53,235 bases of DNA from a virus (IMGVR_UViG_3300025083_000044:1-53235), one strand, 5' to 3'. Counted from the first letter of the stretch, positions 38,900-50,500 are shown. Numbers and translations: made by a program. Notes: generated by a model from the letters alone, not told the origin.

Positions 38900-41012
38900 T
38901 AAAAAATTCTGGATCAATCGCAACAATACGTTTTGTTGGCCGCCCAGTTCCTTTTGCCCTTAAATCTTTTTCTTGTATCTCCCCTGAGTTTTTTAATCTC
39001 TCTATAATTTCTTTAACTTCGTATGACTTCATTGATCTGAATATTTCACGTCGATCAATATCACGCTTACTTATACCCCAATCTCCTTGCGATCTAATAA
39101 AGCTAAGTATCTGTTTGATACGGCCTTCCATTTCAGATCCCGCAACCTTGTCTTTACAATTCTCTATTAGCAACTGATCGTAGTAATAGACATAATCTAT
39201 CGCCCATTGAGTTATATCGCCTTTAATTGTTTTGGCTTTCCTATCATCTGCAAGCGCTCCAATCAAAGCTAAACGCATTGCTTTTTCTCTTGTTCTAGAC
39301 AATAAAACCTCAAGCCCTTCTTTCTCCAAAGCATTTTGCTGATCTACTAATTTGTATGCCAAGCTGTCCAACAAAGCATTTGAATCATCATCAAACTTTA
39401 TAATTCTTTGTTTAAAATCTAACTCAGCATTGTCTCTAGATATCTGTTCCATTTCGTTGTCAACCTGTCTTACATGTGAAACCCAGTTGTATGTTGATTG
39501 AGGAGGCTCAACGAAAGCTACCATTTTGCCGACAGTTCTTGGCACGTGAGATTCAACAACAATAAATCTATTTAAAAATCCGTCAACAATACGACCTGTT
39601 GATAAAGCGCCATAAAAGTTTTTAGGCACACTCATACCGACCAAAGTGATTGCGGGTTTAATTGTTGATCTATCTAAAACTTCTTTTTGTTGTTTATTGG
39701 TTAGAGTCATCATTGAATAGTTATCTGGTCTTAAAACACCATGACATCTTCCCCAAGTCTCCATAAGAATTTGTAATGCGTCTTCTTTGTTTGAGTTAGA
39801 AGATTTAGATATGCTTTCCAATCTTTTACCAAACTCATCCATAACAGTTATATGAGTTGGTTTATATCTAAGTAAGCTGTAGATAGCTCCGCTTGATGTA
39901 TAGCCGTCTCCCGCCATTAAATCGCTATGCTCTGCATGATCTAAAATAGTTTCAACAACTGTCTTGACATTTTCCTTGCCTTGTCCCGACTTAGCAATAC
40001 ACATAAAAAACAAAGATGAAAAGTTATTCATATTGGTTCTATACATTCTTCCTAAAGCTACCGAGCCTAAAGATAATGCTGCTTGCATACTAATGGCTGG
40101 CTGAGATATGTGCGCTATCTTTTCTGAGTATTCATAAATGTCTTTTAATACACCAGGCGGAGAATAAAGATTAGCTGGCTCTTTTACTGTTTTGGTTGTT
40201 GATATATAAGCAGGTGCTTGTTGGTTTTTTCTGTCATGAGTTTTTTGAACTGAATTAACTGTTGTTGATATTTCACTTGCTGATAAAGGTGGAGAGTTTT
40301 GTTCGTTCCAAGACTGCACAAAGAACTCTGTAAAATCTGTATTTAAACCTTTAGCTATTAAATAACCCGCCAGTCTTGCCGCTTGATCGTTACGGCCGCC
40401 CTCAGAAACACCTTGAATAGATAAAGGTGTAGAGATTGGTTTGCCGTTGAGTTTCTCAACCCCAGTTATCTTCACCCATAATTCTTGAGTTAAGTTTGGT
40501 AAATCATCAACATCATTTAAATCCCAATCTTCAATTCTTGTAGGGGTATATATAGCTCCTGTTGCATGGATATTATGCGGAGCAACAATCAAACCACCCA
40601 CACCTCTAATATCAATAAGCTTGGCTGGATCATAGCCTTCAGTTCTTTTGGCTACCCAAGTAGTAAAATTTTCTGGATTGTTGTAATAATAATGAACCCC
40701 CTTACCTGTTGCTACTTTAAAAGGTGTTACTGGTAAGTTGGCCTCACACCAATTTACCGCTTCGGGTGTATCTGCATCTATAACAATAAACTTGCCACAG
40801 ACTAAAGCGACGACTAGATCATCTCGCCCCTTAAACCATTTCTCTATTTCTTCCGTCGTCGGCTGTCGCTCTTGGAATTTTTGCCACCCCCCTAATTCTT
40901 TGGGCGGAACTTTATTATGCCTATGGAGAGGTACTACACTTATCCCATATTCTGCATAAGCCAGAGCTAAGTCCAACGCAGAGTCTTGCGCTGTTACTTG
41001 TAAATTGAACAC
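38889..41012 (-). CDS. bifunctional primase-polymerase + PriCT + DUF3987-like helicase
   Basis: VIDAD, TGKGVHYYY, IDIRGVGG, EGGRND, KSGQGK Walker A, MDEFG Walker B. Confidence 0.88.
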   Translation of the reverse strand: MFNLQVTAQDSALDLALAYAEYGISVVPLHRHNKVPPKELGGWQKFQERQPTTEEIEKWFKGRDDLVVALVCGKFIVIDADTPEAVNWCEANLPVTPFKVATGKGVHYYYNNPENFTTWVAKRTEGYDPAKLIDIRGVGGLIVAPHNIHATGAIYTPTRIEDWDLNDVDDLPNLTQELWVKITGVEKLNGKPISTPLSIQGVSEGGRNDQAARLAGYLIAKGLNTDFTEFFVQSWNEQNSPPLSASEISTTVNSVQKTHDRKNQQAPAYISTTKTVKEPANLYSPPGVLKDIYEYSEKIAHISQPAISMQAALSLGSVALGRMYRTNMNNFSSLFFMCIAKSGQGKENVKTVVETILDHAEHSDLMAGDGYTSSGAIYSLLRYKPTHITVMDEFGKRLESISKSSNSNKEDALQILMETWGRCHGVLRPDNYSMMTLTNKQQKEVLDRSTIKPAITLVGMSVPKNFYGALSTGRIVDGFLNRFIVVESHVPRTVGKMVAFVEPPQSTYNWVSHVRQVDNEMEQISRDNAELDFKQRIIKFDDDSNALLDSLAYKLVDQQNALEKEGLEVLLSRTREKAMRLALIGALADDRKAKTIKGDITQWAIDYVYYYDQLLIENCKDKVAGSEMEGRIKQILSFIRSQGDWGISKRDIDRREIFRSMKSYEVKEIIERLKNSGEIQEKDLRAKGTGRPTKRIVAIDPEFFNED

Positions 41013-41382: not shown

Positions 41383-41412
41383 ATTGTAATTCATATTAAA
41401 ATAAATTAAAAT
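41383..41412. promoter_or_regulatory. overlapping divergent sigma70-like promoters
   Basis: + TTGTAA-17-TAAAAT (41384-41412); - TTTTAA-17-TACAAT (41411-41383). Confidence 0.5.
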
Positions 41413-41442
41413 AGTATTTTTAAATAAAACGGAGAAGATTAA

Positions 41443-42153
41443 ATGTCTGATATTTTAAGTAGAATTGTAAGTCCTAGCGAATTGGTTGAAAATCAAGGCG
41501 CTAAGATTTTAATGTATGGAGCATCTGGAGCTGGTAAAACGACTGCATGTGCTACATCACCTGGAAAAACTTTAATCATAAGTATGGAAGCTGGTTTGTT
41601 GTCTATTAAAGATGCAAACAATGTTACTGCTATTGAGGTTAAAGAAGCTTCAGAAATAGAACAGATTGCTGAAATGCTTGAAAGCGGAGATCTTGATTAC
41701 GATACTGTCTGTTTAGATAGTGTTACCGAGATGTCTGAACTTTTATTAGCGCAAGAAAAAGCAAGGTCTAAAGATCCTCGACAAGCCTACGGAGAAGTTA
41801 TTAATGTAATGACTAGAACGATGCGTAGGTTTAGAGATCTTAAAATGCACGTTATTTTTGTTGCTAAAGAGGACAAGCTTCGAGACGAAGCAACAGGTAT
41901 GTTTCATTATCAACCAATGATGGTTGGCGCTAAACTACCTACCCAAATTCCTTACTTCTTTGATGAAGTGTTGTGTCTTAGGACTTTCACCGAAGAAAAT
42001 GATGAAGGGAAAAAAGTAACCAATCGTTGGTTGCAAACAGTTCTTGGGGATAATTACATCGCTAAGGATAGGAGTGGCAAGCTAGATTCTTTTGAAGAAC
42101 CTAACTTGACATATATTATTAATAAACTTGGATTTTCAAAAGGAGAAAAATAA
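41443..42153 (+). CDS. AAA_24/Sak4-like recombination ATPase
   Basis: YGASGAGKTT, VCLDSVTE, AKDRSG; adjacent to SSB. Confidence 0.85.
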   Translation: MSDILSRIVSPSELVENQGAKILMYGASGAGKTTACATSPGKTLIISMEAGLLSIKDANNVTAIEVKEASEIEQIAEMLESGDLDYDTVCLDSVTEMSELLLAQEKARSKDPRQAYGEVINVMTRTMRRFRDLKMHVIFVAKEDKLRDEATGMFHYQPMMVGAKLPTQIPYFFDEVLCLRTFTEENDEGKKVTNRWLQTVLGDNYIAKDRSGKLDSFEEPNLTYIINKLGFSKGEK

Positions 42154-42665
42154 TGAGCGATTTTGCAGACGTCAAGTTTGATTTTGAATCTGGTGGTAGT
42201 GGTGAATCTACTATTCCAGAAGGGGACTATTTAACAGAGATAAGCAAATGCGAGAAGACTACTTCTAGCAATGGCAACGACTATCTTGCGTTAGAGGTCA
42301 AAGTATGTGGTGAAAAATACAAAGGCTGGATTGCTAGAGACAATCTAAACCTTTGGTACAAAAATAGCGACGCTGAAAAGCAAGAAATGGTTAGAGAGAT
42401 AGCCTCTAGGAAATTCTCTGGCTTGGTCAAAGCGTTAGGCAGAAAAGACAACCCACCCGCTAATGGTGGCGAGCTGGTTGGTAACAAAGTGATTTGTACT
42501 TTTGGCATTGAGAAAAGTAAAAATCCTGACTATCCCGACGATAAAAACAATATCAAGGGTTTCAAGCCGTTGGAAAAGATGTCGCCTAAACAAGCAGACG
42601 ACACCCCAGCTTGGGTAACAGAAGGAACTTCTGAAGCCAAAGCTCCAGCTAAACCAAGCTTGTAA
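42153..42665 (+). CDS. single-stranded DNA-binding protein (DUF669-like)
   Basis: IPEGDY...GNDYLALE...YKG...NNIKGF; follows Sak4-like gene. Confidence 0.75.
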   Translation: MSDFADVKFDFESGGSGESTIPEGDYLTEISKCEKTTSSNGNDYLALEVKVCGEKYKGWIARDNLNLWYKNSDAEKQEMVREIASRKFSGLVKALGRKDNPPANGGELVGNKVICTFGIEKSKNPDYPDDKNNIKGFKPLEKMSPKQADDTPAWVTEGTSEAKAPAKPSL

Positions 42666-42670
42666 TTGTT

Positions 42671-42736
42671 AGGCTTTGCTAGGAAGCCTTAAAGGTATTA
42701 TCTCCCCCCATTTAGATAGTATGTACCTACCTAGCA
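42671..42736 (+). ncRNA. candidate H-type pseudoknot RNA (PK-A)
   Basis: AGGCTT/AAGCCT interleaved with TGCTAGG/CCTAGCA, internal AGGTA/TACCT hairpin, then T run. Confidence 0.5.
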
Positions 42737-42744
42737 CTTTTTTA

Positions 42745-42836
42745 GACAGGGGCCTTAATAAGAGTTATCCCTTAGTGTCTGGTCCTGTAAAGTGTCTTGA
42801 GAGCGCAGGCATTGTCGAAAAGCGCTCTACCTTTTA
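42745..42836 (+). ncRNA. candidate three-way junction + pseudoknot RNA (PK-B)
   Basis: GACA/TGTC, GGGGCC/GGTCCT, GTGTCT/AGGCAT, loop AGAGCGC pairs with downstream GCGCTCT. Confidence 0.5.
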
Positions 42837-43043
42837 ATGAATGGTTAGACTAATATGGTGAGCAGGATCTATTTCACTAACGTCTAAAATTTTTCCAAAC
42901 GTATAATCGGAACTTTCTTCCATAGAACGAAGCAAAGCAAATAGCTCTGCGGTATCAGAGTTTCTGGCCTGTAAAACAACCATATGCAGGTTGCTGTCTA
43001 TCTCATAGACGCACAGATATTGAGGAATGCTAGGAAATAACAT
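42834..43043 (-). CDS. hypothetical protein (start uncertain)
   Basis: ORF converging on the RNA elements. Confidence 0.6.
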   Translation of the reverse strand: MLFPSIPQYLCVYEIDSNLHMVVLQARNSDTAELFALLRSMEESSDYTFGKILDVSEIDPAHHISLTIH

Positions 43044-43065
43044 ACCTATCATCCTAGCATAATTT

Positions 43066-43323
43066 TTATTGATCGTTGACGTACAAAGCAATCATTGCAT
43101 AGTGAATGATTTTAAGAAGCTCTTTTTTCTTATCGTCTTTTTTGCCATAGCGCATGGCGTATTTCATTATATTACCAATACAAAACCCTTCGCCAAAACC
43201 AGCATCTACAATCATATCTGTTGCCTGGTACTTGCCCTTGGCATAGTGCTGATCGTAGGTGCTGTCTATATAATCTTTTAGCTCAGCAAGAGTAATATCT
43301 TCCTTGAATTTATAATCAATCAT
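43066..43323 (-). CDS. DUF3310-like protein (start refined)
   Basis: QHY...GEGFCIGNIMKYAMRYGKK...LLKIIHY. Confidence 0.75.
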   Translation of the reverse strand: MIDYKFKEDITLAELKDYIDSTYDQHYAKGKYQATDMIVDAGFGEGFCIGNIMKYAMRYGKKDDKKKELLKIIHYAMIALYVNDQ

Positions 43324-44182
43324 GGCAAAAACAATCCATGTTATCGTCATCAAATGGAAACTCTTGTTGCACATCAACCAAAGTAATTAATTCTCTATAA
43401 CTTGGTCTGTCAGTTCTAAATCTATTATTAAATTTTTCTTCAGTTTCCGCCCACCACTTTGCTTTTGACTTATCCTCTTTAATAATTTGGTTAATTTTTT
43501 TTCTGCTTTTTAAAAAACATAAATCGCAATTACCATGAGGGGTTTCGTTGTCTATAATTGGTAAATTAAGATCAAAATTTTGTTTTCTCCAAAAGTTATT
43601 AACATCTTCTTTTGTTGCCTTGGCTTCGTAAAGAGGTGTTAAATTAAATTTCTTTTGTGTATTTTTTGCTTTTTGTCTAGCTACCCTTCTTGGTTCGTCA
43701 TACCTAAGACCAAGAACAGTATCGTAAATCTTTATGCCTTGTTGCTTCATGTAATCGTTAATTCTTACAATTTTTAATTTATCAGTACAAAATCTAGCAA
43801 CAGGATTTGGCAATAATGCTGAATCTTTGTCATATTTGCCTGGTGTATTTAGTTCGGTTCTTGTTTTGAAATACTTAATCATTTTTGTAAATGGTTCACC
43901 ATTTCTGCTTGCTGTTTCATAATTAACTATTTTTGTGATCTGTTTATCACCACCGATCCAATCAAACTCTAACCAAATAATGCTTACACCCCATTTTTCT
44001 TGACAATCTTTAACAAAATCTAATGTTTCTGGACATTCTTTACCTGTATTGGCAAAGATCACATATAAATCTTTTGGCAGCTTTCCATTGTGTGCTTGAA
44101 TTATGTGATACAACATATAAGCAGAAGTTCTGCCACCACTAAAACTAATTAATGCTGGGCCGTTTATTTTGTATGGATTCAC
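43316..44182 (-). CDS. PAPS reductase-family (PP-loop) protein
   Basis: ISFSGGRTS, FANTGKE, RFCTDKLK, GLRYDEPRR, GNCDLCFLK, C-terminal CFCHD. Confidence 0.85.
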   Translation of the reverse strand: MNPYKINGPALISFSGGRTSAYMLYHIIQAHNGKLPKDLYVIFANTGKECPETLDFVKDCQEKWGVSIIWLEFDWIGGDKQITKIVNYETASRNGEPFTKMIKYFKTRTELNTPGKYDKDSALLPNPVARFCTDKLKIVRINDYMKQQGIKIYDTVLGLRYDEPRRVARQKAKNTQKKFNLTPLYEAKATKEDVNNFWRKQNFDLNLPIIDNETPHGNCDLCFLKSRKKINQIIKEDKSKAKWWAETEEKFNNRFRTDRPSYRELITLVDVQQEFPFDDDNMDCFCHD

Positions 44183-45015
44183 AAGGTTAGTGTAACGATA
44201 TTAGGCGAGTTATAAACAGATAGATGGCCACCTTCTGAGTGATTTTTGTACAGCTCCAAAAAGCCTTCCATCTTTTCCCAGCCAAGATTCATTTGTTCTT
44301 CTGAGATGATAAATACTTTAGATGCGTATGGGTAGACCTTCTCTTGCGCTACAAAGACAAACTCATCTAATTTAAAGCCAGCTTTCTCCATACCTCTGCG
44401 ATACCAAGCAGCCTGCATATCATAGCCATATTTTTTAACTGAATAAGCAAACTCTACTGGATCACATGATTGGGTGGTCTTGTAGTCCACTACACATATG
44501 GCGTTGTCTGGGTATGGGCTTTGGACTGGCGGACAGATAACATCTGGTCGGCATTTACAAAGAACCTCGCCTTCATACCAATAGAAACTAGCCTCTGCTA
44601 CTTTGCCTTCAGCGTTAAGGTAGATGTTGCCCTCTTCAATCATATGCTCTTTCATACCTTTAATTGCTGTCATTTCAGCTTCTTTAATAACTGTTAGGCC
44701 GCGCTCCTCATACTCTTTTTTCAGTTCTTTGTTGGCATTGGTATAGGGAGATCCCATTACAACTGCTACTGTTTGGTTAAAAGCTTCCTCACCTTCTACC
44801 AGCAAAGCGTGAGCAGCTGTACCAAAGTTCATTGCAGGAGTTGTCTCTTGGACTCTCTCCACCGCATGCAGTTGCGATTTGCCAAAGGCTCTAATCTTAC
44901 TGCTACTAATACCAACACCCGCATGGTAAACAGGGTTAGGTATATCTGAGAACACCAGGGTGTCGCCCTTTTGCTCAGACTCAAACTCTTTTAGTTCTTC
45001 TATTATCATATTCAT
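44179..45015 (-). CDS. RecE/exonuclease VIII-like (DUF3799) nuclease
   Basis: YHAGVGISSS, MNFGTAAH, KCRPD, VDYKTT, YDMQAAWY. Confidence 0.85.
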   Translation of the reverse strand: MNMIIEELKEFESEQKGDTLVFSDIPNPVYHAGVGISSSKIRAFGKSQLHAVERVQETTPAMNFGTAAHALLVEGEEAFNQTVAVVMGSPYTNANKELKKEYEERGLTVIKEAEMTAIKGMKEHMIEEGNIYLNAEGKVAEASFYWYEGEVLCKCRPDVICPPVQSPYPDNAICVVDYKTTQSCDPVEFAYSVKKYGYDMQAAWYRRGMEKAGFKLDEFVFVAQEKVYPYASKVFIISEEQMNLGWEKMEGFLELYKNHSEGGHLSVYNSPNIVTLTL

Positions 45016-45292
45016 ACTCCAAAATCATCGTTTGCACGACACTATCATTAAGCATTGGCTGAGGCCAATACCGCAACTTATTGTATAAGTTTAGCATGTT
45101 GCCTTCAAAAGACAGTTGCTTGTTATACATAGGGTTTCCTATCGAATCCCAAAAATCTTCTATTTGTTCTAAGGTATTTCTACCACCGCCAACATATTTT
45201 AATTCTGCTTCTGTATAGTCATAAGGTATAAACATAAAATCTCCCGTCTCTTTCCTAAATGGATAACAACGTGTTGGCTTACCTATCTGCAT
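44981..45292 (-). CDS. hypothetical protein
   Basis: overlap-coupled ORF between helicase and exonuclease. Confidence 0.65.
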   Translation of the reverse strand: MQIGKPTRCYPFRKETGDFMFIPYDYTEAELKYVGGGRNTLEQIEDFWDSIGNPMYNKQLSFEGNMLNLYNKLRYWPQPMLNDSVVQTMILEYEYDNRRTKRV

Positions 45293-46892
45293 AAATATGA
45301 TTAACGATATTAGGGAACTTGCCCGAATAATCGACTTTAATTAAATCTGGTTTGTTAACTTCTGTTTGTCTAAACAAAGCTTCATCTACTGTAGAGGGTG
45401 GGGATCTTCGCAAGCTATCACCACTTACCATTTTGTTCCACCAAGCCACAGCTTTCTCTCTTGCATAACCCGAATGCTCAAAGCAGATGTACTCACTAAT
45501 AATCTTATTGGGTGTCTTGTAGCTGACCTTTAATACAGGCAACGGCTTGCCTTGTTTCTGATGATTGCCAAACCACATGTTTATAACCTTGGTATCGTAG
45601 CGTTCTTTTTTGGCTGTCTTAGAAATAATATCTAACTTAGATGCAACCAGCTCTAGCTCTAGCTTACGCATAGGATAGACATAGCCACAATCAGGGCAAG
45701 TGGTTACAGCTTTAGGTACATATGATTGGCATTCTGGACAGCTCTTGACCAAAGCCTCGCCTGTTTTTTTGCGCTTGCCTTTTTGGTTGGGCGCTATTTG
45801 ATTGATAGGGCCATGACGTTCAATATTCTTGGCAAAGTCTAAAATCAAACAATCTTTCTTGCCCTCTGCTATACGCATGCCTCTACCCATCATTTGCACA
45901 TATAAGCCTGGTGAATGTGTAGGTCGCAGCATTATAATTAAATCTGTATTTGGCGCATCAAAACCTGTTGTTAACACATCGCAATTAACCAAAGCTCTAA
46001 TCTTGCCAGCTTTATAATCTGTTATTAGCTGATCTCTTTCGTTTTGATTTGTATCTCCTGTTACCACGCGAGAGGTTATATTGTTGGCATTTAAAATACC
46101 GCTGACCATTTCCGCATGATTGATACCAGCACAAAAGATTAACCATTGTTTTCTGTTTGCGCCTTTGATTAAAACTTCTTGCATGGCTTTGTTGGTTCGG
46201 CCGCTATCGTTCATCTTGGCCTGCAAATCTGTTTGAATAAACTCACCCCCTCTCAAACCTATATCATCAATCTCGTACTCAGTATCCATACATTTAGTTA
46301 CTAGAGGTGATAAGTAGCCGTCATCAATCAGCCGAATAAAGTTATCACCACTACCAAAGTCTATTGCGACATCATCAAAGATATATCCCTCGCCTTCAGT
46401 CAACATACCAGAGTTAAGTCTGTATGGAGTAGCCGTAAAGCCAACCACACGTAAATTTGGGTTGCGTTCTTTAAGGGCGACAACGAGGGAGCGGTACATT
46501 CCCTCGCCGTCTTTTGGAACAAGATGCGCTTCATCAATAGCGAGAAGATCGAATAAGGGCAGTTGATCTACCTTGTTCCAAACTGATTGAAGCTGAGCAT
46601 AGATAATATCGTTATCTGTATCTCGACTCTTTAAGCTGTTGCCATACAAACCTATATCTCCATAAGGCCAAGCGTCTTGTAGCTTTTCATAATTTTGAAA
46701 AAGTATTTCTTTAACATGCGAAACAATTAAAGTTTTTTGTTTTTTTTGTTCATTCATATGCAGCACAAAGTCTGCAATCACATGAGACTTACCAGAGCCT
46801 GTTGGCATAACAACCAAAGGATTGCCGTCCTCTATAGCAATATAATTTTCTAAAGCATCTAGAGCTTCTTGTTGGTAATCTCTTAACGGCAT
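45279..46892 (-). CDS. superfamily 2 helicase (RadD/YejH-like) with Zn finger
   Basis: LRDYQ, PTGSGKS, DEAH, TATP, QMMGRGMR, CPEC...CPDC. Confidence 0.92.
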   Translation of the reverse strand: MPLRDYQQEALDALENYIAIEDGNPLVVMPTGSGKSHVIADFVLHMNEQKKQKTLIVSHVKEILFQNYEKLQDAWPYGDIGLYGNSLKSRDTDNDIIYAQLQSVWNKVDQLPLFDLLAIDEAHLVPKDGEGMYRSLVVALKERNPNLRVVGFTATPYRLNSGMLTEGEGYIFDDVAIDFGSGDNFIRLIDDGYLSPLVTKCMDTEYEIDDIGLRGGEFIQTDLQAKMNDSGRTNKAMQEVLIKGANRKQWLIFCAGINHAEMVSGILNANNITSRVVTGDTNQNERDQLITDYKAGKIRALVNCDVLTTGFDAPNTDLIIMLRPTHSPGLYVQMMGRGMRIAEGKKDCLILDFAKNIERHGPINQIAPNQKGKRKKTGEALVKSCPECQSYVPKAVTTCPDCGYVYPMRKLELELVASKLDIISKTAKKERYDTKVINMWFGNHQKQGKPLPVLKVSYKTPNKIISEYICFEHSGYAREKAVAWWNKMVSGDSLRRSPPSTVDEALFRQTEVNKPDLIKVDYSGKFPNIVNHIYADR

Positions 46893-47000
46893 TTACTTCT
46901 TTTTCTTTTTAGGAAAAACTTTCTTTACAACTTTAGATAACTTGCCAGACTTCATAATTCGATCAAGCCTGTTAATTGTTTTAGCCTTTTTATTCTTCAT
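46893..47000 (-). CDS. 35-aa basic protein (not in ORF track)
   Basis: MKNKKAKTINRLDRIMKSGKLSKVVKKVF...; fills gap before helicase. Confidence 0.5.
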   Translation of the reverse strand: MKNKKAKTINRLDRIMKSGKLSKVVKKVFPKKKKK

Positions 47001-47166
47001 CTTTATTTGCAAAATTAGTTTTAGTTTCTTTACCGCTTGCATATTTTAATTTTCTAAAATGTTCTCCAGCGCCTTTTTGATATTCATACCAAACTATTTT
47101 TTTATCATCTTCTTCAGCTTGAAGTTTTTTTCTTTGCTTCTCTACATTTTTTTTATACTGAGTCAT
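46990..47166 (-). CDS. hypothetical protein (start refined)
   Basis: MTQYKKNVEKQRKKL... within minus-strand operon. Confidence 0.55.
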   Translation of the reverse strand: MTQYKKNVEKQRKKLQAEEDDKKIVWYEYQKGAGEHFRKLKYASGKETKTNFANKDEE

Positions 47167-47229
47167 TTTCTCTTGATCCCCCTGGTAATTGTTCAACGTC
47201 AAACCAACCGCACGGATAATTTACACCTC

Positions 47230-47364
47230 TCATTTTCCTTGACCTCTATATTTTTTACGCGTTTTGCGTTTGTTAGTTCCAGCGCCTCGGCTAAGCCTTG
47301 AGTCGCCAATAGATGTTTTCTTTTTAATACTTTGTATTTTTTCTTTAATCCAAGTCTTTGCCAT
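47230..47364 (-). CDS. 44-aa basic protein (not in ORF track)
   Basis: MAKTWIKEKIQSIKKKTSIG...RKKYRGQGK; GAGG RBS. Confidence 0.65.
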   Translation of the reverse strand: MAKTWIKEKIQSIKKKTSIGDSRLSRGAGTNKRKTRKKYRGQGK

Positions 47365-47821
47365 TGTTTTTTTCCTCTAGTTGTTTATAAAATTCTGCAA
47401 CTGCCATTATCTCCTGCCAAGTGCCGTCGCTTTTAATACAGTTGGCCCGATGAGAAACAATAAGAATGTTGCCTATAACATAACCTTTGTTGTTGTCTAT
47501 TCTCTCCATTGTGGGTGAGTTGTATCTGTTTTCATATCCATGCACAAGCTCAATACCAAGAACTGGACACTTAAAATCTTCTGGCCATACGTTCCAAATA
47601 TCTTGAGGTTTAAGAGTGCAAGGCGGCCAACCCCTGTCCAAAGTTCTGCGCCTTGCTCCAGATAACATCTTATGCGCCCAATAAGAAGGTTTGTTTCTTT
47701 TGTTTTCGTTATAGCAAGATCGACACTCCCACCTAAAAGGCGGAGCTTTCTTTAGTTTTCTATTGGGAAAGTTTACTGAGTTCAATTCTTTTGTTTCCTT
47801 GCATATAGGACATTTTCTCAC
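47345..47821 (-). CDS. HNH-type endonuclease with Zn-binding N-terminus
   Basis: CPIC...CRSC; CPVLG...SPTMERIDNNKGYVIGNILIVSHRAN. Confidence 0.75.
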   Translation of the reverse strand: MRKCPICKETKELNSVNFPNRKLKKAPPFRWECRSCYNENKRNKPSYWAHKMLSGARRRTLDRGWPPCTLKPQDIWNVWPEDFKCPVLGIELVHGYENRYNSPTMERIDNNKGYVIGNILIVSHRANCIKSDGTWQEIMAVAEFYKQLEEKNNGKDLD

Positions 47822-48084
47822 TTTGGGTCAATAGCCTTTAAATATAGTTCTTGCCAAAACTTAACTTGGTGTAAGAGATCGTTGTTTTGTTTTATTATTT
47901 CTTCTATATCTATTTTTCTGTTGTCTCCTGGTATGCAAATAGAAAAAAATATATTGTTTCTATCTACCTCAGTCTCAAACTTATCTCTCAATAAATCTGG
48001 TATGTTGGGAGCGTTTGGATCTACCTTATCTACATAAAACTTTGCTTGAACTAAAACTTCCCGCTCTTTCTTTAGTTCTTTCAT
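47818..48084 (-). CDS. hypothetical protein
   Basis: coupled ORF in operon. Confidence 0.65.
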   Translation of the reverse strand: MKELKKEREVLVQAKFYVDKVDPNAPNIPDLLRDKFETEVDRNNIFFSICIPGDNRKIDIEEIIKQNNDLLHQVKFWQELYLKAIDPK

Positions 48085-48176
48085 AAATGTTTATTCATTA
48101 ACCAAATAAAATAAAGCAAGCCACCTACAAGGTAAGTGGCTATCACACCTAAGATCCAAAGAAAAAACTCAAGCAT
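48081..48176 (-). CDS. 31-aa single-TM protein (not in ORF track)
   Basis: MLEFFLWILGVIATYLVGGLLYFIWLMNKHL; overlap-coupled. Confidence 0.5.
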   Translation of the reverse strand: MLEFFLWILGVIATYLVGGLLYFIWLMNKHL

Positions 48177-48318
48177 CGTTTGTAAATAAGGTTTCTTCAG
48201 TATTTCTCCAAATATCAATAAATTCTGGAGCCGCGCCTGAGTGCTCTACATATATAGTTATATCTCCTACCTTTATATACGCAGAAACTTCAGACCTTTG
48301 ATCTATCTCAATACTCAT
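48169..48318 (-). CDS. 49-aa hypothetical protein (not in ORF track)
   Basis: MSIEIDQRSEVSAYIKVGDITIYVEHS...; AGGAGG RBS. Confidence 0.6.
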   Translation of the reverse strand: MSIEIDQRSEVSAYIKVGDITIYVEHSGAAPEFIDIWRNTEETLFTNDA

Positions 48319-48506
48319 TTGGATGCCTCCTTATAAGCATGCTCAAATAAAGCTGGGTGATGTTGGCGAATGTACTCAACAAACTTGCTCAACCTTTCGG
48401 TTGATTGCATGTCTTCTTCTACATCCGAAGTATGTTTGGGAGCTGGTAATCCTGGTTGTAAAGCTTTCATACCTTCCCTTATAAAATCTATTTCTGTCAT
48501 TGACAT
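48315..48506 (-). CDS. hypothetical protein (start refined)
   Basis: AGGAG RBS before MSMTEIDF. Confidence 0.65.
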   Translation of the reverse strand: MSMTEIDFIREGMKALQPGLPAPKHTSDVEEDMQSTERLSKFVEYIRQHHPALFEHAYKEASK

Positions 48507-48551
48507 AATCTTCTCCTGATTAATTATTTCACTAATAGTATAAAATTTAAG

Positions 48552-48579
48552 TTGCTTTGTAAACACCTTTTGATATACT
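48552..48579 (+). promoter_or_regulatory. sigma70-like promoter in divergent region
   Basis: TTGCTT-16-TATACT with TGn extension. Confidence 0.55.
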
Positions 48580-48607
48580 AAAGGTATATTTATTTTGGAG
48601 AACATAA

Positions 48608-48826
48608 ATGACGATAGATAAAAGAATGTCAGATTACGTAGACCACACTAGAGATTACTTACAACAATTGGTATGCCAAATCATTAAAGTTTATTTGCAG
48701 TCTGCCAGCGTTGAGATTTCTAACCCAGACGCAACCTTGCAGCAAATAGAAGCTGACAAGGATCGCTTGATCGATATGGTTAATAACTTGGCCGAGGTCG
48801 AAAAGAGAAAGATTAAGACGCATTAA
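48608..48826 (+). CDS. hypothetical protein
   Basis: GGAG RBS; first gene after promoter. Confidence 0.7.
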   Translation: MTIDKRMSDYVDHTRDYLQQLVCQIIKVYLQSASVEISNPDATLQQIEADKDRLIDMVNNLAEVEKRKIKTH

Positions 48827-48827
48827 C

Positions 48828-49082
48828 ATGGTTGAATATCAAGGCAAAAAAGTTACAGTTAGAACTAAAGTCAAACATGAATTGTCTGATGTGGTTATTG
48901 CTTGGGTCAATCAGGTTGTCAAAAATCCAGAGGATGTCATTGTTGATTGGAGTCAGATGACAACAAAGGAACAAGAAGAGTTTGAAAGACAGGCTTTCTT
49001 GTTAGAGGGTAAACTCCACAAAGTTATCGGCGTGGCGTTTGCAGAAATAATTAGTAGTAGCAACTACACTAAAAAGATATAG
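48828..49082 (+). CDS. hypothetical protein
   Basis: packed ORF in operon. Confidence 0.65.
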   Translation: MVEYQGKKVTVRTKVKHELSDVVIAWVNQVVKNPEDVIVDWSQMTTKEQEEFERQAFLLEGKLHKVIGVAFAEIISSSNYTKKI

Positions 49083-49090
49083 GAGGAGAT

Positions 49091-49279
49091 ATGAGTAAGA
49101 CAGGAGATTTACTTATCGACATTCAAGCAGATGCTCAGATAGTCGTAGGTGATTGCGAAAACTTTCAAGAGTTTTGCGATCGCATGTATGACATCAATTA
49201 TCTGTATTCGCCAGGAATGATACAGCAGACTTGGAATGATTATAAAGAAGAATGCCGTTGGAAGTACGGCGAAGGCTAA
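49091..49279 (+). CDS. hypothetical protein
   Basis: AGGAGG RBS. Confidence 0.7.
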   Translation: MSKTGDLLIDIQADAQIVVGDCENFQEFCDRMYDINYLYSPGMIQQTWNDYKEECRWKYGEG

Positions 49280-49324
49280 TCGCGAACAGGCAATCATTCG
49301 GCTTGTATAAACAATAGAAGTGCA

Positions 49325-49402
49325 GTTGCGACGAGGTTTATTCATCCTCGTCTCCAGAGACTTTGAGGTGTAGTCTTGCAACGATACACACCTCACCTTT
49401 TA
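49325..49402 (+). ncRNA. candidate three-way junction + pseudoknot RNA (PK-C) in methyltransferase leader
   Basis: GTTGC/GCAAC, GACGAGG/CCTCGTC, GAGACT/AGTCTT, loop TGAGGTGT pairs with ACACCTCA. Confidence 0.55.
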
Positions 49403-49413
49403 GGAGAAAAAAT

Positions 49414-50469
49414 ATGAATGTATTAAGTTTGTTTGACGGAATGAGTTGCGGAATGATCGCTTTAGATCGGCTGGGCATTAAAGTTGATAAGTATTACGCA
49501 AGCGAAATAGACAAATACGCCATTCAAGTCAGTCAAAACAATTACCCAGAGATTATTCAAATCGGAGATGTTTGCGACATTAGGGCTGAAGATTACCAAA
49601 ACATAGATTTAATATTATCTGGCTCGCCTTGTCAGGGTTTTAGTTTTGCGGGCAAGCAGCTTGCCTTTGACGATCCAAGATCCGCTTTGTTTTTTGAATT
49701 TATTAGGTTGTTAAAAGAAATTAAACCTAAATATTTCTTATTAGAGAATGTCAATATGAAAAAAGAGTTCTTAGATGTCATTTCAGAGCAAGTATCGTCC
49801 TGTTATCCCGAACTTCCTTTCGGTATTGAAAGAATCAAGATCAATTCAGCTCTTGTTTCAGCTCAAAACAGAGTGCGTTGGTATTGGACAAACATACCAG
49901 ACATTACCCAACCCGAACAAAGGGGGATTGTTTTGCGGGATATATTAGAAACAAATTCGTTTGAAAACTCAGCAGAAACCCACGATACCCCCAAACAAAT
50001 AGCAACGGCTATAGATGTAAACGGACACGATATTTTAAAAAGAGTTTATTCAGAAGATGGTAAGTCTCCTGTTGTTACTACTTGCGGGGGCGGTAATACT
50101 GAACCAAAAGTGGTTGTTCAATCGTATCGAGAAGTAAGAACGGAAGAAGCAAAACGATTAAGACGAGAAAGCAAACAAAAGACAGGCAAAGATCATACGC
50201 CTTTTCGAGCCAAGAAGATTGTACCCAGAGAAGATGGTAAGGTCGGAACAGTTACGCCTGGTTTAAATAACGATCACATGATTAGCCTTACTAGAGATAA
50301 AGATCAGGATGTTTATTGGCGAAAGATTACTCCGATTGAAGCGGAGAGGTTGCAAACAGTTCCAGATAACTACACCGATTGCGTTTCAACAACGCAGAGA
50401 CTCAAATGTTTAGGGAATGGTTGGACGATTGAAGTGATTACGCACATCTTAAAAAATATGGATGTTTGA
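49414..50469 (+). CDS. C5 cytosine DNA methyltransferase (start refined to ATG 49414)
   Basis: motif I VLSLFDG, motif IV GSPCQGFS, motif VI LLENV, motif VIII QNRVR, motif X LGNGW. Confidence 0.92.
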   Translation: MNVLSLFDGMSCGMIALDRLGIKVDKYYASEIDKYAIQVSQNNYPEIIQIGDVCDIRAEDYQNIDLILSGSPCQGFSFAGKQLAFDDPRSALFFEFIRLLKEIKPKYFLLENVNMKKEFLDVISEQVSSCYPELPFGIERIKINSALVSAQNRVRWYWTNIPDITQPEQRGIVLRDILETNSFENSAETHDTPKQIATAIDVNGHDILKRVYSEDGKSPVVTTCGGGNTEPKVVVQSYREVRTEEAKRLRRESKQKTGKDHTPFRAKKIVPREDGKVGTVTPGLNNDHMISLTRDKDQDVYWRKITPIEAERLQTVPDNYTDCVSTTQRLKCLGNGWTIEVITHILKNMDV

Positions 50470-50500
50470 TTGCTGCGACACTATCCTTTAAACTATTTGA

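Follow-up and report, generated by a model that had tools for sequence, protein, structure and literature searches.

The window analysed here, the whole stretch of 53,235 nt of viral DNA, carries two intergenic elements, PK-B and PK-C, which by comparison with their relatives are two copies of one RNA family. That comparison confirmed the family as a real structured RNA on the + strand, in which a three-way junction is combined with a pseudoknot between a loop and the tail, and this family of knotted phage RNAs is apparently undescribed. By its distribution, the element is a discrete portable cassette of about 75 nt that lies between genes of marine phages.

An earlier note had proposed that the two RNAs share a three-way-junction and loop-pseudoknot fold, and inspection of the sequence located every segment that it listed for either of them. 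PK-B (42745-42836, + strand, 92 nt) is situated in the 3′ region of a DUF669 / SSB-like gene (42153-42665, + strand; Pfam PF05037, E = 5.5e-11; PHROG single-strand DNA-binding protein families), between the stop of that gene (42665) and the stop (42834) of a convergent ORF (42834-43091). Its P1 pairs GACA (42745-42748) with TGTC (42813-42816). The P2 hairpin (42749-42786), which is of the long form, has a GGGGCC/GGTCCT stem with two G-U pairs (42749-42754 with 42781-42786), and its 26-nt loop holds GAGTTATCC in the apical part. The variable junction strand J2/3, GTAAA (42787-42791), is followed by the P3 hairpin (42792-42812), in which a GTGTCT/AGGCAT stem, again with two G-U pairs (42792-42797 with 42807-42812), encloses a loop (L3) made up of TG (42798-42799) and the 5′ strand of the pseudoknot, AGAGCGC (42800-42806). 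Past P1 are the A-rich linker GAAAA (42817-42821), the pseudoknot 3′ strand GCGCTCT (42822-42828), which forms 7 bp with 42800-42806, and the tail ACCTTTTA (42829-42836), the TTA of which overlaps the stop of the convergent ORF. PK-C (49325-49402, + strand, 78 nt) lies between an ORF at 49091-49279 and the Shine-Dalgarno (SD) site and ATG of a C5 DNA methylase gene. Its P1 joins GTTGC (49325-49329) to GCAAC (49378-49382), its P2 (49330-49352) is a GACGAGG/CCTCGTC stem with a 9-nt loop, and its P3 (49357-49377) is a GAGACT/AGTCTT stem whose loop consists of T and the pseudoknot 5′ strand TGAGGTGT (49364-49371). The linker GATAC leads to the pseudoknot 3′ strand ACACCTCA (49388-49395), which in the register of the family amounts to 7 bp (49388-49394) and then the invariant A at 49395; the tail CCTTTTA, the SD site GGAG (49403-49406) and the ATG (49414) follow at 49396-49416, all on the + strand.

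Taken by itself, the window gave a weak signal for PK-B and PK-C. A loose descriptor of the architecture matched at five distinct places, versus an average of 1.15 places over 20 Markov shuffles, and ACCTTTTA occurred 7 times where 4.06 occurrences were expected. PK-B had a fold z-score of -0.71 and PK-C one of -3.5; nested MFE folding of both copies favoured P2 together with the ‘PK’ hairpin. The strong evidence for the family lies in its relatives. Covariance model R1, built from 22 PK-B-type sequences and zero PK-C-type sequences, found PK-C in the window at exactly 49325-49402, over its full length, with 34.2 bits and an E-value of 6e-5 (R2: 61 bits over 49330-49402). PK-B scored 76.9 bits (E = 3e-13) with R1 and 65.4 bits with R2; the next R1 match in the window had an E-value of only 0.35, and the search brought up no further copy there.

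Covariation was assessed in 41 distinct members of the family, which come from contigs of uncultured marine viruses. Standard pairs occupied 96.0% of the pair cells, and both-side changes were seen in 18 of 23 pairs, over all four helices (P1 3/4, P2 6/6, P3 4/6, PK 5/7), which agrees with the earlier claim that the stems differ while pairing is kept. Examples are the P1 variants GACA/TGTC, GGCA/TGCC and GTTG/CAAC and, among relatives of PK-C, the P2 stems GACAGGA/TCCTGTC (L004) and GGCGAGT/ACTCGTC (L185) and the P3 stem GAGATC/GGTCTT (L004). P3 was paired in 98.4% of cells and the pseudoknot in 100%, the pseudoknot helix having been left out of the model that produced the alignment; slid controls were 33-48% paired, and the observed values were reached by none of 500 shuffles. 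Two of the checks that had been proposed for the fold, the covariance-model search and the covariation analysis, came out in its favour, with R1 recovering PK-C and all four helices covarying. The numerous G-U pairs in the family alignment (17, 12, 25, and 26 cells at four pairs) fix the strand as +, as had been proposed from the G-U pairs of the two copies.

The suggestion of a phage RNA family without a counterpart in Rfam also held. Rfam 15 yielded no match at the gathering threshold in the whole window or in 58,437 b of sequence from six related loci, the best sub-threshold matches of PK-B and PK-C had E-values of about 1, and zero copies of the family were found in GenBank phage records and prokaryote genomes. 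A catalogue of structured RNAs from IMG/VR, a data source common to the PK family, comprises 879 candidates located at most 25 nt upstream of genes, and for four of them the gene encodes a DNA N-6-adenine methyltransferase (Fremin et al., 2023; PMC10690425). The main text of that paper presents no motif with the PK-family fold, and the family may be among its unnamed supplementary entries.

Members of the family are about 73-92 nt long, with 4-5 bp in P1, 6 bp in P3 and a variable P2 hairpin, whose long and short forms are 17 nt apart. The 7-bp pseudoknot joins the P3 loop to a segment 4-5 nt past P1 and closes a loop of 14 nt in 24 of the 41 members, 15 nt in 13, 16 nt in 3 and 13 nt in 1. 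Helix lengths are fixed across the family, J2/3 takes 19 different strings among the 41 distinct members, and topology outweighs sequence. Conserved unpaired bases are confined to the A-rich linker and to an A-C that follows the pseudoknot. Two features that had been read from the two copies did not extend to the family: the linker does not regularly start with GA, its first base being G (30), A (9) or U (2) among 41 members and its final three columns A in 38-39 of 41, and the tail is shared only as A-C-(C/U), its U-run not being conserved. The base after the pseudoknot is A and the next C in all 41 members, and the third is C in 28 and U in 12. Many members have tails lacking a U-run (ACTAACA, ACTATACA, ACCTAACA, ACCAGTTT), and 3-7 U follow A-C-C in PK-B and in the last copies of tandem arrays.

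These latter U-runs, the nested MFE structures of both copies and the position of PK-B at the expected end of the Sak4-SSB operon are what one would expect if the loop-to-tail helix and the U-run formed an intrinsic terminator or attenuator, perhaps a regulated one. We consider this very unlikely. In such a hairpin the loop would span 14-16 nt and the U-run would be set off from the stem by three bases, a terminator scan listed neither PK-B nor PK-C, many members have no U-run at all, 25 of 53 copies stand directly before an SD site and start codon, and the covariation of P1 and P3 would be superfluous. Even more doubtful is a role as a ligand-responsive riboswitch or as a new self-cleaving ribozyme. 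A three-way junction with a pseudoknot is typical of both at this size, and small ribozymes are known to occur in tandem copies and in association with phages. Against this, a J2/3 that varies to such an extent leaves no highly conserved unpaired junction core, the flanking genes are mutually unrelated and one type of site lacks a downstream gene, none of the Rfam riboswitch and ribozyme models matched PK-B or PK-C up to an E-value of 10, and no conserved SD-masking segment was apparent by eye. Together, the variable junction and the unconserved U-run argue against a riboswitch, a ribozyme or a terminator.

The genomic positions of the element were surveyed in 53 distinct flank contexts. A same-strand ORF ended at most 250 nt upstream in 52 of them, and every located copy was in the sense orientation relative to its flanking genes. 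An SD site and start codon lay 18-28 nt past the invariant A in 25 contexts, where the downstream genes, judged by length and N-terminus, were at least five different ones; in another type of site (13/53), the element stood at the end of an operon and its tail overlapped a convergent ORF at the stop. Copies often stand in tandem, in arrays of 2-3. Copies identical in 74 of 75 bases were present at an SSB site (L102) and before a gene for 62 aa (L177), with unrelated flanks, and the helicase of the latter lineage, measured in L172, was only 31.6% identical to that of the window. Among phages with 100% identical SSB the element was either present or absent, and in L104-L107 it replaces another pseudoknotted element directly after the SSB stop. 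PK-C travels with a 45-nt spacer (49280-49324, + strand) that is kept in relatives with different upstream and downstream genes (L037, L004, L185, and L171), and the spacing from a PK-C-like tail to the SD site and ATG recurs before other genes. The nearest cultured phages, whose hosts are Pelagibacter, share only 60% terminase identity; the only RNA runs with relatives are stored as contigs, none of which spans PK-B, and no transcript ends were seen.

The element is multi-copy, has sharp borders and is present or absent between close relatives, as MITE/REP-like elements are, and its mobility could be that of a selfish element without benefit to the phage. A selfish mobile cassette of this kind, its fold serving its own spread only, or a site of recombination at the DNA level, in either case without a role in phage mRNA, would accommodate the near-identical copies at unrelated sites and in unrelated lineages, and the fact that the modules all end in an A-C-Y-U-rich tail would make an inserted copy look as if it were flanked by short repeats. 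We regard it as quite improbable, given that all located copies in the 53 contexts are sense-oriented, that G-U pairs, like the compensatory changes, speak for an RNA fold under selection, and that the strict SD spacing suggests use by the phage; an unsystematic look found no transposase or terminal inverted repeats. REP/BIME repeats and phage T7 RNase III sites are short intercistronic structures that shape mRNA ends and stability. The element resembles REP in being multi-copy, variable in presence and arranged in arrays. However, REP/BIME repeats and T7 RNase III sites are simple or interrupted hairpins, whereas the element combines a junction with a pseudoknot, occurs only in the sense orientation and lacks a long duplex for RNase III.

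The same positions bear on a translational operator, in which a phage RNA-binding protein, for example the SSB-like one in the manner of T4 gene 32 and its autoregulation, would nucleate on the pseudoknot, spread over the U-rich tail and the SD site, and repress the downstream gene. The fixed spacing that 25 of 53 contexts show, in which a U/A-rich tail without structure separates the pseudoknot from the SD site, and the occurrence of elements in DNA-metabolism modules, one of them adjoining an SSB gene, are consistent with such a role. The leader of T4 gene 32 is similar in that an H-type pseudoknot in a phage mRNA is followed by an unstructured A/U-rich stretch and a ribosome-binding site, in an SSB-type gene module. 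In the element, however, the pseudoknot lies inside a three-way junction, copies are tandem and mobile, they precede several unrelated genes and follow an SSB gene, and no binding protein is known. An operator is unlikely for further reasons: a downstream gene is absent from 13 of 53 contexts, PK-B is 3′ rather than 5′ of the SSB gene (in the loci seen, the element never precedes it), internal copies of tandem arrays do not adjoin an SD site, few conserved unpaired bases are available for a protein to read, and no protein gene was seen to accompany the element.

The reading that we favour, while holding it tentatively, is that the element is a protein-independent mRNA boundary and stability module. 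It would act in cis and without a dedicated protein, its knot-like fold stopping enzymes that move along RNA. On its 5′ side it may block RNase J or another 5′-3′ exonuclease, or else RNase E as it scans from a 5′ end bearing a monophosphate, and on its 3′ side it may block 3′ exonucleases; the adjoining cistron would gain a defined, protected end, and an SD site 7-17 nt further on would be left free. Because this proposed function is independent of context, the cassette could move between intergenic sites and phage lineages. As described in PMC8374639, folds of exoribonuclease-resistant RNAs (xrRNAs) block any 5′-3′ exonuclease, bacterial RNase J1 included, and also occur in series. RNase E that scans from the 5′ end is reported to be impeded by obstacles (PMC9943677, PMC11194081). 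The boundary reading leaves the invariant A-C after the pseudoknot and the strict 7 bp unexplained.

The resemblance to flavivirus class 1 xrRNAs on which the earlier note had drawn stands in part. The order of P1, P2 hairpin, P3 hairpin, P1 3′ strand and then a partner (‘latch’) of the P3 loop is that given in PMC8374639, the junction is three-way with P1, P2 and P3 all supported by covariation in the 41 members, and serial occurrence and variable stems with conserved topology are common to both. The closed loop of 13-16 nt compares with an xrRNA ring quoted as 15-16 nt (PMC8374639), threading not being readable from sequence. On the other hand, the element lacks PK1, the defining pseudoknot of class 1 xrRNAs, in which the 5′ end pairs with the junction and is threaded through the ring: the longest pairing of the 8-nt 5′ flank with J2/3 averaged 2.29 bp, versus 2.34 +/- 0.13 for permuted partners. 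Because this 5′ pseudoknot is missing, a block by a ring that encircles the 5′ end is not established for the element. It also shows no sign of the conserved base triple of xrRNAs, its latch helix is 7 bp long, it is encoded by DNA phages as a mobile intercistronic element adjoining SD sites, and no xrRNA model was among the Rfam matches of PK-B and PK-C up to an E-value of 10. The likeness is one of topology and loop size only.

Another reading is a tRNA-like processing signal, in which the 7-bp helix of the pseudoknot would stack on P3 and imitate an acceptor/T arm whose 3′ end carries A-C-C. Cleavage by host RNase P would fall in the P3 loop, immediately 5′ of the pseudoknot strand, such that the downstream cistron would start with a paired 5′ hairpin near the SD site and the upstream cistron would end in P2. 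We consider this reading rather unlikely, and it is a resemblance in five short features that may have other causes. ARAGORN found no tRNA or tmRNA gene in the window, no Rfam tRNA or TLS model matched PK-B or PK-C at an E-value of 10, there is no T-loop-like arm, and at the fourth tail position 31 of 41 members have U and only 6 have A. In TYMV-type TLSs and other non-tRNA substrates of RNase P, as in the element, a 3′ strand and a hairpin loop form a 7-bp helix followed by A-C-C; the element differs in being internal to mRNA rather than 3′-terminal, in having no equivalents of the T or anticodon arms, and in a tail that is mostly ACCU, not ACCA. By the account in PMC11143913, GGU of bacterial RNase P pairs with an RCCA motif, the ruler is the 12-bp acceptor plus T stem, and further substrates of the enzyme are the pseudoknotted, tRNA-like termini of plant virus RNAs, together with phage RNAs and mRNAs, that of T4 gene 32 among them. 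P3 and the pseudoknot form a stack of 13 bp, which comes near this length but is not 12. In favour of the tRNA-like reading, RNase P is universal, which would suit the spread across hosts, and the pseudoknot always has 7 bp, with a first pair that is G-C in 35 and A-U in 6 of 41 members, a preceding base that is U in 31 of 41, and A-C and then C or U after it.

All segments that the earlier note had listed for the two RNAs were found where it placed them, and ORF positions in the window bear out that both lie between genes. PK-B (42745-42836, +) is situated 3′ of the gene pair encoding Sak4-like and DUF669 SSB-like proteins, and its final three bases form the stop of a convergent ORF, while PK-C (49325-49402, +) ends 11 nt before the ATG of a C5 DNA methylase gene, with GGAG in that gap. 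Statistics from the window alone are only weak. The nested MFE favors the P2 helix plus a loop-tail hairpin; its z-scores are -0.71 (PK-B) and -3.5 (PK-C). The 8-mer common to both tails is not enriched in the window, and our architecture descriptor, which finds 5 distinct places in the window versus 1.15 per shuffle, is too loose to count as evidence. Promoter and terminator scans, in which counts were near or modestly above chance, list neither element. When evaluated apart, the junction helices P1 and P3 add -5.8 (PK-B) and -9.8 (PK-C) kcal/mol and the loop-tail helix adds -11.0 and -9.9 kcal/mol, respectively, indicating that both sets of pairs, which have no bases in common, are stable.

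We fetched 80 loci with relatives of the SSB-like gene (42153-42665, +) and 80 with relatives of the methylase. The family members come from uncultured marine viral contigs, and loci are designated here by L-numbers. A complete PK-B-type element was present at the same site in 20 of the 80 SSB loci, in 12 sequence variants including the window's own. A core-pattern scan of IMG/VR returned 40 stretches, three of which were discarded as chance matches in G+C-rich coding DNA. We used 22 PK-B-type sequences to build a covariance model, R1, whose structure comprised P1, P2 and P3. Run over the window with filters off, R1 scored PK-B at 76.9 bits and recovered PK-C, a type absent from the model, at full length and exactly at 49325-49402, with 34.2 bits and an E-value of 6e-5, the next match standing at 0.35 (these E-values are rough, calibration having been shortened). 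The proposal that the two RNAs share one fold was thereby confirmed. R2, a broader model, again matched PK-B and PK-C only, and the matches to both models indicate that these are two copies of one family. A minus-strand stretch inside the primase/helicase gene (40283-40355), with E-values of 0.35-0.55 in R1 and R2, was rejected; it has many broken pairs, ends in CACCTTTAT, and is probably a chance match or possibly a decayed copy. Of the 80 methylase loci, 3 also gave PK-C-type matches to R1. A second scan, in which only the pseudoknot strands were fixed, gave 52 stretches, 32 of them new loci, and R1 confirmed 19 of these 32. Pattern scanning combined with R1, in place of the covariance-model search of marine viromes suggested in the earlier note, found further family members.

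The whole element spans 73-92 nt. Its three-way junction comprises a P1 of 4-5 bp, a variable P2 hairpin and a P3 of 6 bp, with 3-5 nt between P2 and P3 (J2/3) that take 19 different strings among 41 members. The P3 loop has 9 nt, of which the first two (U in 39 of 41; then U in 31, G in 9 and A in 1) precede a 7-nt pseudoknot strand. An A-rich linker of 4-5 nt separates P1 from the 7-nt 3′ strand of the pseudoknot, and the loop that the pseudoknot closes measures 14 nt in 24 members, 15 in 13, 16 in 3 and 13 in 1. The tail that follows starts with A and C in all 41 members, then C in 28 or U in 12, and this A-C and the A-rich linker are the only unpaired bases that are conserved. The U-rich tail shared by the two window copies, which had been taken as part of the common architecture, proved not to be a family feature, other members reading ACTAACA, ACTATACA, ACCTAACA or ACCAGTTT. 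A junction this variable, with so few unpaired bases conserved, speaks against a ligand pocket or catalytic core. Two further pairings were considered and dropped: masking of the SD by J2/3, which by eye works only in PK-C, and pairing of the tail with the 5′ strand of P2, which by eye works only in one subfamily. P2 is short in most members and extended in a subset (window 42755-42780; L168, L173, L189, L241), where a conserved tip, GAGTTATCC, absent from the short form, sits on a small extra stem. This tip is an optional sub-domain that could provide a tertiary contact or a binding site.

Covariation was assessed in an alignment of 45 matches to R1 (41 distinct), into which the pseudoknot was written by hand. 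Standard pairs accounted for 96.0% of 931 cells, compared with 33-48% in a control in which partners were slid by 1-3 columns. Changes on both sides were seen in 18 of 23 pairs: 3 of 4 in P1 (100% of cells paired), 6 of 6 in P2 (86.4%), 4 of 6 in P3 (98.4%) and 5 of 7 in the pseudoknot (100%). The observed covariation score was reached by 0 of 500 shuffles, a count that is not a probability; the rows are related, and the alignment was fitted to P1-P3. Because the pseudoknot helix is absent from the model, its perfect pairing is independent of that fit. G-U pairs were frequent (17, 12, 25 and 26 cells at four pairs) and would be A-C mismatches on the other strand, indicating that the RNA has the same sense as the flanking genes. 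Two claims made from the two copies, that stem sequences vary while pairing is kept and that G-U pairs point to the + strand, therefore hold in the family alignment, the former in all four helices across 41 distinct members. Coding by a 53-codon frame (42676-42837) was ruled out by P2 length variants that differ by 17 nt.

We classified the copies by position, using 53 distinct flank contexts drawn from metagenomic fragments that overlap; the contexts are not mutually independent. A same-strand ORF ends no more than 250 nt upstream in 52 of the 53, the exception being cut by a contig end. In 25 contexts an SD and start codon begin 18-28 nt past the invariant A, and the genes that follow are of at least five kinds by length and N-terminus, namely the methylase, 74-aa, 62-aa and 99-116-aa ORFs, and a 106-136-aa group. 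Another 13 contexts are operon ends at which the tail overlaps the stop of a convergent ORF; the remainder comprise inner members of two- or three-copy tandem arrays, copies at contig ends, and sites where a spacer of at least about 120 nt follows the element. The 13 sites lacking a downstream gene, together with the inner array copies, argue against a pure translational operator, and an intrinsic terminator is argued against by the non-conserved U-run, the 14-16-nt loop and the location right before an RBS. PK-C belongs to a cassette of 45-nt spacer, element and SD that precedes the methylase in the window, L004, L037 and L179 and a different 74-aa gene in L185 and L171. The spacer itself (49280-49324) is kept from the upstream stop codon on, despite an upstream ORF that differs between L037 and L004 and the window. 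It may contain a promoter or a further RNA feature; it is not among the sites listed by a sigma-70 scan.

Among phages with 100% identical SSB-like proteins, PK-B is present in some and absent in others. At the empty sites the preceding structured element is joined directly to its A-C-Y-U-rich tail, and in L104-L107 the element occurs 12 nt past the SSB stop, in place of that other structured element. The L102 copy, from the SSB site, and the L177 copy, which precedes a 62-aa gene, share 74 of 75 bases, counted from AGACA to CACCTTTT, with unrelated flanks. The helicase of the L177 lineage, for which L172 was measured, has only 31.6% identity to that of the window. Several copies, sharp borders and presence or absence between close relatives are traits of the MITE/REP-like kind. 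As judged from these sequence comparisons, the element is a discrete, mobile cassette, and it shows non-coding RNA modules being exchanged by phages as discrete units.

While the predicted fold, strand, positions and mobility are established at the level of sequence, the mechanism is something we infer: the element is plausibly, though somewhat short of probably, an mRNA boundary and stability module. It would act as a shape-dependent barrier to enzymes traveling along the RNA, a role compatible with a partner-free element that works in any intercistronic context, tolerates tandem repetition or profits from it, and is used at operon ends as well as 5′ of an RBS. In addition to this fit, the boundary and stability reading draws on two precedents, the stopping of bacterial RNase J1 and any other 5′-3′ exonuclease by xrRNA folds, as described in PMC8374639, and the slowing by obstacles of RNase E scanning from a 5′ monophosphate, as described in PMC9943677 and PMC11194081. 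The main rival, a tRNA-like RNase P site, appears rather improbable to us, even though it would account for the strict 7 bp, the G-C first pair, the preceding U and the invariant A-C-(C/U), and RNase P is described as cutting pseudoknotted tRNA-like ends and phage mRNAs, including T4 gene 32 mRNA (PMC11143913). Such a site would also define RNA ends and could coexist with a boundary module.

The xrRNA-like topology proposed for the two RNAs stood in part. Like class 1 xrRNAs, the element has a three-way junction, a latch pseudoknot and a comparable loop size, and it occurs in series. Unlike them, it lacks PK1, as 5′ flank and J2/3 can form 2.29 bp versus 2.34 +/- 0.13 bp with permuted partners, and it matches no xrRNA model. 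On both grounds we do not regard it as a member of the xrRNA family, though it may work like one. To our knowledge, xrRNA-type folds are so far known only from RNA viruses of eukaryotes. Many Gammaproteobacteria lack RNase J, an enzyme that occurs in Alpha- and Epsilonproteobacteria, Firmicutes, Actinobacteria and cyanobacteria. It is a doubtful but conceivable extension of the boundary-module reading that the element represents the first RNA of a DNA phage to act as a nuclease roadblock. Knot-like and evolved independently of flavivirus xrRNAs, it would mechanically halt 5′-end-dependent decay by RNase J or scanning RNase E just 5′ of the RBS and spread between marine phage lineages as a self-contained, portable 'mRNA stabiliser cassette'. 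If this fold, with its xrRNA-like topology, turned out to be a roadblock in DNA phages that infect marine bacteria, bacteria would join the organisms in which RNA decay is controlled mechanically, and convergence between the two folds would be directly testable. Whatever the mechanism, a small covarying family with a fully specified pseudoknot is a good target for structure determination, and a context-independent mobile cassette found by RBSs is a candidate part for insulating or stabilizing cistrons in synthetic operons.

In agreement with the earlier claim of a family outside Rfam, Rfam 15 at gathering scores gave no match in the window or in six related loci, and permissive scans of both elements returned only NsiR4, freshwater-2, snoR30, ES173 and RsaD at E-values of about 1. 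The freshwater-2 match (window 49312-49416; 17.4 bits, E 1.1) mostly covers a 3′ part made up of a U-rich stretch, AGGAGAAAA and AUG, an SD and start context also present 3′ of the element, and may reflect an RBS style common to aquatic phages rather than homology. A tRNA/tmRNA finder reported nothing in the window. The core pattern gave 24 stretches in genomes of prokaryote species, none confirmed by R1, and the element was found in none of four cultured relatives (HTVC027P, HTVC023P, 023Pt_psg01 and DSL-LC04); the single HTVC023P match, at E 0.03, was set aside as it lies antisense inside annotated genes and does not resemble the element. In blastn comparisons with GenBank phage records, PK-B yielded one 23-nt chance match and an L183 copy none. 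The fold was not described in the literature searched on xrRNAs with phages or RNase J, nor in that on structured phage or marine intergenic pseudoknot RNAs. A catalogue described in PMC10690425 contains 10,006 candidate structured RNAs without names, drawn from IMG/VR and RNA viruses, and the PK-B/PK-C family may be one of its unnamed entries.

The 53,235-b IMG/VR record is estimated to be 97% complete and represents a tailed phage with large terminase, portal, structural and tape-measure-like genes on the + strand. Its replication and recombination module, from ~38.9 kb onward, includes genes for a primase/helicase, Sak4-like AAA_24, DUF669 SSB-like, DUF3310 and PAPS-reductase-like proteins, a PDDEXK exonuclease, a helicase, an HNH/EndoVII-like endonuclease and the C5 DNA methylase. 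By terminase, the closest cultured phages are the Pelagibacter phages HTVC027P and HTVC023P (~60% identity), and the lineages that carry the element are without close cultured relatives. Contigs from four marine metatranscriptome runs of one study, compared with 41400-50500, comprised short, low-depth pieces of relatives that left PK-B uncovered and barely covered PK-C. Some of these contigs join across 43320-44181, 47372-47837, 48176-48317 and 49097-49275, each interval corresponding to one whole ORF of the window: the PAPS-reductase-like gene (43316-44182), the HNH/EndoVII-like gene (47345-47821) and two small ORFs (48169-48318 and 49091-49279). These four genes are therefore variably present among close relatives, and for the HNH gene such presence or absence fits a homing endonuclease.

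Two other stretches deserve mention. One lies 5′ of the arrays in L164 (7035-7111) and L195 (1889-1970), where it comes before confirmed copies and its first bases are the stop codon of the ORF upstream. Its sequence diverges from theirs, but by eye the family's four helices can be drawn in it (AGCAA/TTGCT, CCGG/CCGG, GCAACT/AGTTGT, and loop GAGAC with GTCTC); it scored 12.7 bits with R2 (E 0.82) and was not counted as a member, and it may be a distant third subfamily. The other, at 42669-42744 (+), directly follows the SSB stop just 5′ of PK-B and matches nothing in Rfam. It consists of a hairpin whose loop includes GCTAGG, a hairpin with a C-rich loop, and a CCTAGC able to pair with the first loop as a pseudoknot. 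Of the 75 SSB-relative loci that extend far enough downstream, 71 contain the GCTAGG...CCTAG motif, which takes 35 distinct forms. RNAalifold predicts the long-range pairing, which is invariant, and the second hairpin, in which 3 of 4 pairs have both-side changes. With its similar A-C-Y-U tail, this stretch looks like a sister module.
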